Below, piece by piece: positions 4,970 through 5,974 of a stretch of 31,156 nucleotides of DNA. Location of the stretch: IMG/VR virus record IMGVR_UViG_2778261417_000015, positions 1-31,156 of that record, one strand, 5' to 3'. The translations under genes and the position numbers were made by a program. Numbering within the stretch: position 1 is the first letter of the stretch; every line of letters begins with the position of its first letter. Below the pieces are notes generated by a model that saw nothing but the letters and a program-made list of their open reading frames with translations, searched no databases and had not been told where the DNA came from. This DNA is from a virus (taxonomy: Duplodnaviria; Heunggongvirae; Uroviricota; Caudoviricetes).

Positions 4970-5974
4970 TCAGTATTGAATTTTGGTGTGCGGCACCAGG
5001 CCATCCTTTAAAACGGTAAGGACCTGAATTGCCTGTTCACGGGTAAGGTTGGTGTGAGCGGTGAGGGCGTTAACAATTTCGGTGCCGACAGCTTTGCGAT
5101 GCTTAACGTCAGCCTCACGCTTTGCAGCCTCATCGGCGATGCGCTTTTCTTCCGCCAGACGGGCGGCTTCCTTTGCTTCGGTTTCTCGCCGAACCTTGTC
5201 TGCCGCTTCCTGCGCCTTTCGCTTCTCAGCTACAATGGCCTCCTGCTTTTCACGCTCGGCACGTTCAGCAGCTTCTTTTTTCTCGCGTTCTGCCTTCTGC
5301 TCTGCTGCTACACGGTCACGCTCCGCTTGCTCAGCCTTAAGCTTTAACTCCGCTTCCCGGCGCGCAGACTCAGCACGTTCGCGCTCGGCTTTCTCTTCGG
5401 CTTCGCGTTTGGCCTGTTCCGCCGCCTGACGCTTCAACTCTTCTTCACGAGCAATGCGCTGGCGTTCTGCTTCTTCTGCTTTTTCTTTTGCGTCGCGGTC
5501 GAAAGCGTCATTCATCAGCAGGGCCATTTCATGGTCCGCTTCGATTTGTGCGGCACGCTGGCGGTCGAAGTCTTCGTTCATCTCCAGTGCTTCGACATGC
5601 CAGGTATTCATTTCCTCTTCAGCCTTAATTCGCTCCTGCTCGGCTTCCCACTCTGTAAGAGGGCGGCGCACCTCATCCTTAAGCGCATCGAGGCGTTCAC
5701 GCACAATTCGACGGCTTTCGTCGATCTGCTTTGGCAATGCCTTAAGTTCAGCGACGAGGTCTTTACCGGCGTTGTCGATATACGTTTTAGAGCGCGCGAC
5801 CTTGTGGGCCATGGATGCGATGGCATCGCGACCTTTCTTCGTGGTCAGATCTGGTACCAGGCTACGAGCTTCTTTCTCGATGGCCTCGATAATCGGATCG
5901 AGCTGTTCCTTACTGGTAAACACCGCCATCGCGTTCTGCTTCTCAATGACGACTAAGTCCGTTACTTCGCTCAT
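4970..5974 (-). CDS. Large charged coiled-coil protein (334 aa), E/R/A/K low-complexity centre
   Basis: Long ORF with AGGAGA RBS. Globular N- and C-terminal parts flank about 150 aa of EAERQ/KREAEE repeats. Inserted between the Kil-like gene and gam. Confidence 0.6.

Follow-up and report, generated by a model that had tools for sequence, protein, structure and literature searches.

In phage phi80, the gene that precedes the host nuclease inhibitor gene gamL is annotated as agt, "anti-toxin for Gam," with the note "Mog (modifier of Gam)" (PHI80_40; AFV29176.1, in GenBank record JX871397). The same record describes gamL as "host RecBCD/SbcCD enzymes inhibitor" and as "toxic without Mog," and the gene order of the region is kil-(orf)-agt-gamL-recT-exo. 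Here we describe a gene from IMG/VR virus record IMGVR_UViG_2778261417_000015 (Caudoviricetes) that, by sequence and position, corresponds over its full length to phi80 agt/Mog. The stretch analyzed, positions 1 to 31,156 of that record, is 31,156 nucleotides long and is referred to below as the window. The gene, which we call agt, occupies positions 4970 to 5974 of the minus strand and encodes a protein of 334 amino acids (38.3 kDa; isoelectric point, 5.4). It starts with an ATG that lies 5 nucleotides downstream of a Shine-Dalgarno sequence, AGGAG (5980 to 5984, minus strand), and it stops at a TGA (4970 to 4972). Since phi80 agt was already known, the window gene adds to a family that has a name and is barely characterized. 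What is new is the comparative point that the family is linked to annealing-protein and exonuclease genes rather than to Gam, so that the label "anti-toxin for Gam" misfits its distribution.

PHI80_40 was found by tblastn against phage genomes, and BLASTP aligns the window protein with phi80 Agt over residues 1 to 334 and 1 to 322, respectively, with 51% identity (E = 3e-68). The full window protein also matches phrog_1376, a family listed as "unknown function" (E = 9e-106; residues 1 to 334 on profile positions 1 to 362). Based on this end-to-end alignment and on the phrog_1376 match, we conclude that the two genes are orthologous. They have in common full-length homology, a four-part architecture, the PHROG family, and a position after kil and before a gene for a RecBCD inhibitor, and the order of genes on the minus strand of the window is equivalent to that of phi80. 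They differ in that the window partner is a lambda-type Gam (PF06064), while the phi80 partner is GamL; in addition, the window protein has 11 more residues in its charged helix, and divergence is greatest in the C-terminal domain. Only ~30 N-terminal residues of the window Gam can be aligned with phi80 GamL (33 residues; E = 3e-5). Having GamL as the partner is a trait of the phi80 pair and not of the Agt family, since 4 of 88 other loci likewise have a lambda-type Gam. By analogy with what is annotated for the phi80 homologue, relief of Gam toxicity is a putative function of the window protein. For phi80, Rotman et al. 2012 reportedly were unable to clone gamL when agt was absent, which we treat as a lead and not as a result. 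The first-pass annotation of this DNA had called the role of the gene unknown, which is only partly right, since it overlooked the phi80 counterpart and its "anti-toxin for Gam" annotation. It had also presented the gene as inserted between the Kil-like gene and gam, which is misleading, as genes of this kind are widely conserved and, as a standard feature, head phage recombination modules. A full-text literature search, which did not reach the paper behind the agt/Mog annotation (Rotman et al. 2012, J Bacteriol 194:6802), returned no description of Agt, and Agt is also absent from the main text of a 2025 survey that covers lambdoid recombination modules (PMC12315714).

By the pattern of substitutions, the agt reading frame is a real coding gene that is under purifying selection, because differences between homologues concentrate at third codon positions and because an exact copy and many relatives exist. 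Differences from the homologue of Klebsiella phage ST15-VIM1phi2.1 are distributed over the first, second, and third codon positions as 46, 41, and 169, and differences from the homologue at locus L026 are distributed as 60, 45, and 162. The exact protein copy and >100 relatives at ≥77% identity are found in Enterobacteriaceae (Escherichia, Citrobacter, Klebsiella, Raoultella, and Enterobacter), and the database labels on the close relatives are "hypothetical" or "coiled-coil domain-containing." None of 5,426 complete Escherichia coli genomes holds ≥80% of the kil-agt-gam stretch (4600 to 6250); the best agt matches in these genomes have ~82% identity over 36% of the query, and the identical Agt protein is present in draft E. 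coli assemblies. This combination of alleles looks rare in E. coli and appears to be mosaic with Klebsiella and Citrobacter prophages.

The forward set for the comparison of downstream genes consists of 88 Agt-like loci (9 annotated phages and 79 IMG/VR contigs), which are the best-scoring loci rather than a random sample and in which the downstream genes were classed with a small home-made reference set. The next recognizable downstream gene is GamL at 34 of these loci and a lambda-type Gam at 4, the window, itself a rare lambda-Gam-paired member of the family, not being counted. Thus, Gam or GamL comes next at 38 of the 88 loci. At the other 50, the next recognizable gene is neither, and Erf, Sak4-like, RecE-like plus Erf, Bet, or RecT is found instead. 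An annealing protein or an exonuclease is encoded downstream at 87 of the 88 loci. In the reverse direction, an Agt N-terminal domain is encoded upstream at 30 of the 74 GamL loci that have enough upstream sequence and at 2 of 76 lambda-type Gam loci. Identical 49-residue C-terminal alleles are shared among loci with Gam, loci with GamL, and loci that have neither, and N-terminal domains that are 90 to 97% identical to that of the window protein likewise occur with Gam, with GamL, or with no Gam. Based on the forward counts, the reverse counts, and this sharing of alleles, the conserved association appears to be with the recombination module, and pairing with Gam appears to be optional in both directions and not allele specific. 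The same three observations lead us to reject an obligate toxin-antitoxin pairing (neither Gam nor GamL follows at 50 of 88 Agt-like loci, and no Agt-like gene lies upstream at 44 of 74 GamL loci or at 74 of 76 loci with a lambda-type Gam). Because relatives adjoin recombination genes in Gam-containing and Gam-less phages alike, the real job of Agt-like proteins is probably broader than the name Gam antitoxin implies.

Individual phages illustrate this range, which extends over phages of gamma-, beta-, and alpha-proteobacteria. In Pseudomonas phage D3, orf53 is followed by ERF and a YqaJ exonuclease; in phiLM21, which has an alpha-proteobacterial host, gp10 is followed by Erf, exo, and NinB; and in Piluca, which has a beta-proteobacterial host, gene 016 is followed by Bet and exo. 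In these three phages, the annealing-protein gene starts 11 to 12 nucleotides past the Agt-like gene. Gene 32 of Acinetobacter phage phi5013-M1 is followed by RecT and exo, and a gene labeled "TolA" in Cruim01 is followed by ERF, YqaJ, and SSB. None of these five modules has a Gam gene. The order in HK544 and Sf6-type phages is gp37, cIII, kil, and Erf, with abc2 farther along, and in Vibrio phage 1.036.O, a coil protein gene is followed by a RecE-like nuclease gene, an unassigned gene, and an OB-fold gene. More distant relatives, at ~30% identity, directly follow the gene for a Rad52-family annealing protein in Vibrio phage 431E48.2 and have an RdgC gene 1.5 kb upstream in Cobetia phage Carin1. 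The uncharacterized phrog_1376 members Sf6 gp33, HK544 gp37, and D3 orf53 all resemble the window protein in having the N-terminal domain, the charged helix, and the C-terminal I-x-Y domain, and all lie at the head of a recombination region. Unlike the window, D3 has an Erf-type module without Gam or GamL, and HK544 has an Erf-type module with abc2, in which cIII and kil can sit between the Agt-like gene and erf.

This is a very large family. With the first 160 residues as the query, 5,237 protein clusters, each represented at 50% identity, match the Agt N-terminal domain at E ≤ 1e-3, and 3,892 match at E ≤ 1e-10. Nonetheless, neither Pfam nor NCBIfam has a model for it, and its members are routinely misannotated as TolA. 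The window protein has no Pfam match, 50 diverse relatives together yield only three stray matches, each in a single member, NCBIfam and PADLOC give nothing meaningful for the family, and a PDB sequence profile search gives only low-complexity charged helices (zuotin, DDRGK1, and Med15). Fold searches return only generic helical matches and no recognizable solved fold. The Pfam, NCBIfam, PADLOC, PDB, and fold searches thus assign the terminal domains to no well-characterized family. Gram-positive phages have helical proteins (DUF1351 and Sipho_Gp157) that are encoded ahead of their annealing-protein genes and that may be analogues; neither the window protein nor the 50 relatives have a Pfam match to DUF1351 or Sipho_Gp157.

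The predicted protein is a nearly all-helical rod. AlphaFold2, run with a 51-sequence alignment, gives a mean per-residue confidence (pLDDT) of 84 over the full length and ~90 over the N-terminal region, and it places helices at residues 12 to 20, 22 to 37, 46 to 201, 205 to 307, and 312 to 323, with a pLDDT dip at 197 to 209 within the charged helix and an extended tail after the last helix. The conserved N-terminal region, residues 1 to 116 (5627 to 5974, minus strand), comprises two short helices (12 to 20 and 22 to 37), an invariant loop with the motif VPDxxTxKGR, and the first part of the long amphipathic helix. In the conservation alignment of 51 diverse family members, D42, R49, P105, and E110 are invariant, and ~20 further positions in this region are nearly so. 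The conserved residues between 56 and 110 (K63, D67, K71, K78, D85, R88, R92, D96, R103, E110, and others) lie on one face of the helix and form an acidic and basic stripe that runs along 8 nm of it. Residues 117 to 160 (5495 to 5626, minus strand; pLDDT, 94 to 96) contain a motif that, as read from the translation, is duplicated. Its second copy, DHExALxxNxxFDR, is also seen in one family subtype; the other subtype has a different helical insert. The E/R/K/A-rich helix occupies residues 161 to 290 (5105 to 5494, minus strand), as defined by composition and predicted helix. It is followed by the conserved C-terminal domain, which in the alignment of relatives covers ~45 residues (291 to 334; 4973 to 5104, minus strand) and ends in I-x-Y. 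Of the 51 relatives, ≥90% retain R286 and the terminal Y334.

The anatomy proposed in the first-pass annotation, ordinary-looking terminal domains on either side of an extreme charged helical core, is thus confirmed. The extreme E/R/A/K bias that it reported for the core is also real, but the core is 130 residues long and not ~150. Residues 161 to 290 are 81% E, R, K, or A (25% alanine) and 8% hydrophobic, with 50 to 63% E, K, or R in each 30-residue window and 0.5 opposite-charge i to i+3 or i+4 pairs per residue. In the best heptad register, hydrophobic residues (LIVMFWY) occupy 14% of the a and d positions in this segment, compared with 45 to 46% in residues 46 to 160 and a fraction of 0.45 in the N-terminal amphipathic helix (residues 46 to 116). 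Because no heptad register of the core carries hydrophobic residues, the term "coiled coil," which had been applied to it, is probably wrong, and the core probably forms an ER/K single alpha-helix, a spacer that would span ~19 nm (0.15 nm per residue). ER/K single alpha-helices serve in lever or tether proteins, such as myosin VI and myosin X. The Agt core resembles these spacers in its high E/R/K content, its opposite-charge i to i+4 pairs, the lack of a hydrophobic seam, and a continuous predicted helix of variable length. This is an analogy of shape and not homology, and the alanine content of Agt is unusually high for such a spacer.

Neither is the core truly repetitive, as had been implied by describing it as EAERxKxEAEE-type repeats. 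A tandem-repeat origin is rejected, as Tandem Repeats Finder gives only a 9-bp array of 2.4 copies, and the one clear duplication is of 11 residues (residues 228 to 249; 5228 to 5293, minus strand). Close relatives differ in the charged helix by exact 11-residue steps, which correspond to three helical turns. There are 323-residue alleles without residues 227 to 237 or 257 to 267, protein lengths cluster at 323, 334, and 345 amino acids, and across more distant relatives, the segment equivalent to residues 115 to 286 is as short as 127 and as long as 312 residues. The coding strand of the core is 68% purine, and the AT skew of the plus strand goes down to -0.56. Because of this skew, long open reading frames arise on the plus strand opposite agt (5054 to 5347, 5061 to 5429, 5122 to 5340, 5454 to 6053, and 5531 to 5956), with low-complexity, S/A/R/F-rich translations. 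We regard these plus-strand frames within 5054 to 6053 as spurious by-products of the compositional skew, just as the first-pass annotation had recognized.

Our preferred interpretation, to which we assign about an even chance of being correct, is that Agt is an indirect modifier or adaptor, a rodlike tether that accompanies phage recombination functions. The anatomy suggests a tether or adaptor because a conserved head and a conserved tail are separated by a spacer that varies in length by phase-preserving, three-turn insertions and deletions. In this prophage, agt is the first gene of the recombination module, agt-gam-recT-zinc ribbon open reading frame-exo, and is transcribed leftward after kil. 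Its predicted product is an elongated, nearly all-alpha-helical rod of four parts: a conserved N-terminal helical cap with an amphipathic helix that bears an invariant charged stripe, a short duplicated motif, a probable ER/K spacer of ~130 residues that drifts in 11-residue steps, and a small conserved C-terminal domain that ends in an invariant tyrosine. In our model, Agt would act stoichiometrically, as an adaptor or tether alongside the phage recombination functions, and the harm done by Gam-type nuclease inhibitors would be tempered indirectly, via a partner that is common to all these phages, without binding and sequestering of one particular Gam protein. Candidates for this common partner would be DNA ends or a conserved host DNA repair or replication factor. 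DNA or conserved host factors are the more likely partners because the phage proteins that accompany Agt are nonhomologous to one another while the end domains of Agt are conserved.

A more specific version, which we offer tentatively as possible but more probably wrong than right, is that Agt-like proteins are a general component of recombination modules. They would form a tether of ~40 nm, in which the conserved N-terminal helix and the C-terminal I-x-Y domain connect two conserved partners (a DNA end, the replisome, or SSB might be one and the recombination machinery the other), which would keep recombination and the inhibition of nucleases spatially restricted to phage DNA. If true, this would account both for the lost Gam toxicity in phi80 and for the presence of Agt-like genes in Gam-less phages with Erf, RecT, Bet, Sak4, or Rad52-type proteins. 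In practical terms, lambda-Red-type modules are workhorses of genome engineering in which Gam toxicity limits use, and a conserved companion that tempers Gam or aids recombination could improve recombineering systems.

Several points weigh against the adaptor interpretation. The only functional statement about any of these proteins is the GenBank annotation of the phi80 homologue, the window protein being known from its sequence, and the phi80 data as annotated are equally compatible with a direct modifier of Gam. The adaptor role is drawn from shape and synteny, with fold searches that returned generic helices, and the single alpha-helix assignment comes from composition rather than from a dedicated predictor or from biophysics. 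The locus counts carry the selection and classification described above. Finally, Gam or GamL, where present, is always the immediate neighbor, within a few nucleotides downstream of the Agt-like gene, and such constant, tight adjacency is also what a dedicated partnership would look like.

In the window, this adjacency is especially close. The open reading frame listed for gam starts at 5004, inside agt, but the ATG at 4962 is the one that fits position 1 of the Gam profile, which gives a 98-residue short form of lambda-type Gam (4666 to 4962, minus strand; PF06064, residues 15 to 111 of the longer reading frame; E = 7.7e-50). This ATG lies 7 nucleotides past the agt stop codon, and its Shine-Dalgarno sequence, GAGG (4971 to 4968), overlaps that stop codon; for these two reasons, gam is probably translationally coupled to agt. 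The in-frame ATG at 5004, within the end of agt, could yield a 112-residue long form of Gam (extra segment, 4963 to 5004, minus strand), which recalls the long and short isoforms of lambda Gam; of the two forms, it is the short one alone whose first residue falls on position 1 of the Pfam profile. In one match from the literature, the name "GamL" occurs in what we take to be a reference to the long isoform of lambda Gam and not to phi80 GamL.

An alternative is that Agt is a dedicated antitoxin that binds Gam or GamL directly and sequesters or retargets it, in the manner of type II systems, and that the Gam-less phages carry unrecognized Gam analogues. The phi80 labels say as much, Gam or GamL lies next to Agt and is apparently coupled to it wherever present, and the small unclassified open reading frames found before Erf at Gam-less loci, some of which end in ...PF as GamL does, could be the analogues. 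As in type II toxin-antitoxin pairs, the upstream gene is annotated as neutralizing a toxic downstream gene, and the spacing is tight. The resemblance ends there: co-occurrence is not obligate either way, there is no sign of coevolution, and Agt is a 334-residue rod in whose family searches of Pfam, NCBIfam, and PADLOC find no type II antitoxin DNA-binding or toxin-binding domain or any other known domain. The distribution is the main argument against a dedicated antitoxin, since most Agt-like genes lack Gam or GamL, since an annealing-protein gene is the next gene in D3, phiLM21, and Piluca, and since most GamL genes and nearly all lambda-type Gam genes lack Agt. Moreover, lambda Gam and phi80 GamL can barely be aligned, yet identical C-terminal alleles of Agt pair with both and with neither. 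We therefore consider this alternative unlikely.

It is also rather improbable, in our judgment, that Agt itself modulates host nucleases or protects DNA ends, as a functional analogue of Gam that occupies the "gam slot" and that, when it occurs with Gam in phi80-like phages, shifts the spectrum of inhibited enzymes. The order Agt-like gene, annealing protein gene, and exonuclease gene in Gam-less phages does mirror lambda gam-bet-exo, the conserved basic and acidic stripe along the 8-nm helix face would suit such a protein, and the phi80 alias is "modifier of Gam." However, neither sequence nor fold searches link Agt to lambda Gam, to Mu Gam/Ku, to Abc2, or to another nuclease inhibitor, and HK544-type phages have both an Agt-like gene and abc2.

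We are strongly inclined to doubt a third alternative, an effect purely in cis, in which the agt frame holds translation of gam at a low, coupled level and the protein itself is unrelated to Gam. The 7-nucleotide gap and the overlap of the gam Shine-Dalgarno sequence with the agt stop codon are consistent with this, as is the similar tight spacing in relatives. Nevertheless, purifying selection, >5,000 clusters, and invariant residues indicate an independent function for the protein, and an effect in cis covers only the phi80 phenotype and not what the Agt protein does.

That Agt is a TolA-like cell envelope protein, as suggested by homologue records labeled "TolA protein," "cell envelope biogenesis protein," and "membrane protein involved in colicin uptake," is effectively refuted, and the TolA identity is rejected: the label stems from a likeness purely of composition to the long A/E/K-rich helical segment of TolA domain II, whereas Agt belongs to a phage recombination operon, has no membrane anchor or transmembrane segment (maximum 19-residue Kyte-Doolittle hydropathy, 0.65, at residues 1 to 19), and shows, like the 50 relatives, no Pfam or NCBIfam match to the TolA C-terminal domain (domain III) or to any other TolA domain.

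Two side observations concern the proteins encoded next to Agt-like genes. At Gam-less loci (L010 to L078), open reading frames of 55 to 65 codons between the Agt-like gene and Erf or Sak4 often encode a C terminus of ...PF (ELPF, GCPF, TEPF, EQPF, or NPPF; e.g., L050, 5981 to 6169; L021, 6014 to 6184; and L069, 6130 to 6324). GamL of the phi80 type ends in ...CPF (e.g., L095, 3001 to 3282), and these ends recall the ...IPF tip of bacterial SSB, on which many repair proteins dock. The small proteins may be mimics of the SSB tail or analogues of Gam. Separately, several proteins that were scored as "Erf_HK544" begin with MKFEKAMRKKA(K/R)LRLALTGPSGSGKTY, a P-loop start that is typical of Sak4/RecA-like annealing proteins (approximate coordinates: L021, 5192 to 6064; L078, 5292 to 6155; and L087, 7306 to 8178). 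Because of these P-loop starts, the "Erf" class in the locus counts mixes at least two types of annealing protein.

The Kil-like, recT, zinc ribbon, and exo genes around agt are on the minus strand. Upstream of agt is the Kil-like gene (6058 to 6210; PF06301, E = 1.3e-10; phrog_2055), and the PF06301 and PF06064 matches, together with the list of open reading frames, bear out the initial placement of the 334-residue frame at 4970 to 5974 between the Kil-like gene and gam. Downstream of gam are genes for a RecT-family single-strand annealing protein (3740 to 4669; PF03837, E = 1.3e-28) and a YqaJ/lambda-Exo-type exonuclease (2774 to 3493; PF09588, E = 6.1e-31). Between recT and exo lies a reading frame for a cysteine-rich, zinc ribbon-like protein of 95 amino acids (3456 to 3743; phrog_17137, unknown function, E = 4.5e-63). 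It also weakly matches the ends of HNH endonuclease PHROGs and is an unexplained extra gene in the recombination module.

Farther upstream, a gene for an 87-residue DUF7446 protein (6207 to 6470, minus strand; PF24233, E = 9.7e-22; phrog_1578) immediately precedes kil and overlaps its start, and a homologue is also found at GamL loci, e.g., L097. There are terminator-like hairpins on the leftward strand at 6580 to 6597 and 7173 to 7187 (minus strand), upstream of kil-agt-gam, one of which (GACCCGC...GCGGGTT plus a T run) is just past a 108-codon reading frame at 6596 to 6922. Both hairpins may be tL-type terminators that are passed by antitermination; no N-like gene was identified in the window. 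A reading frame of 195 codons (7386 to 7973, minus strand) immediately follows the gene for a LexA/CI-type repressor (7985 to 8740), in the position of lambda rexAB. A close homologue of this frame is present in an unrelated GamL-bearing contig (L100, 968 to 1555), and the gene may be a moron that is expressed in the lysogen.

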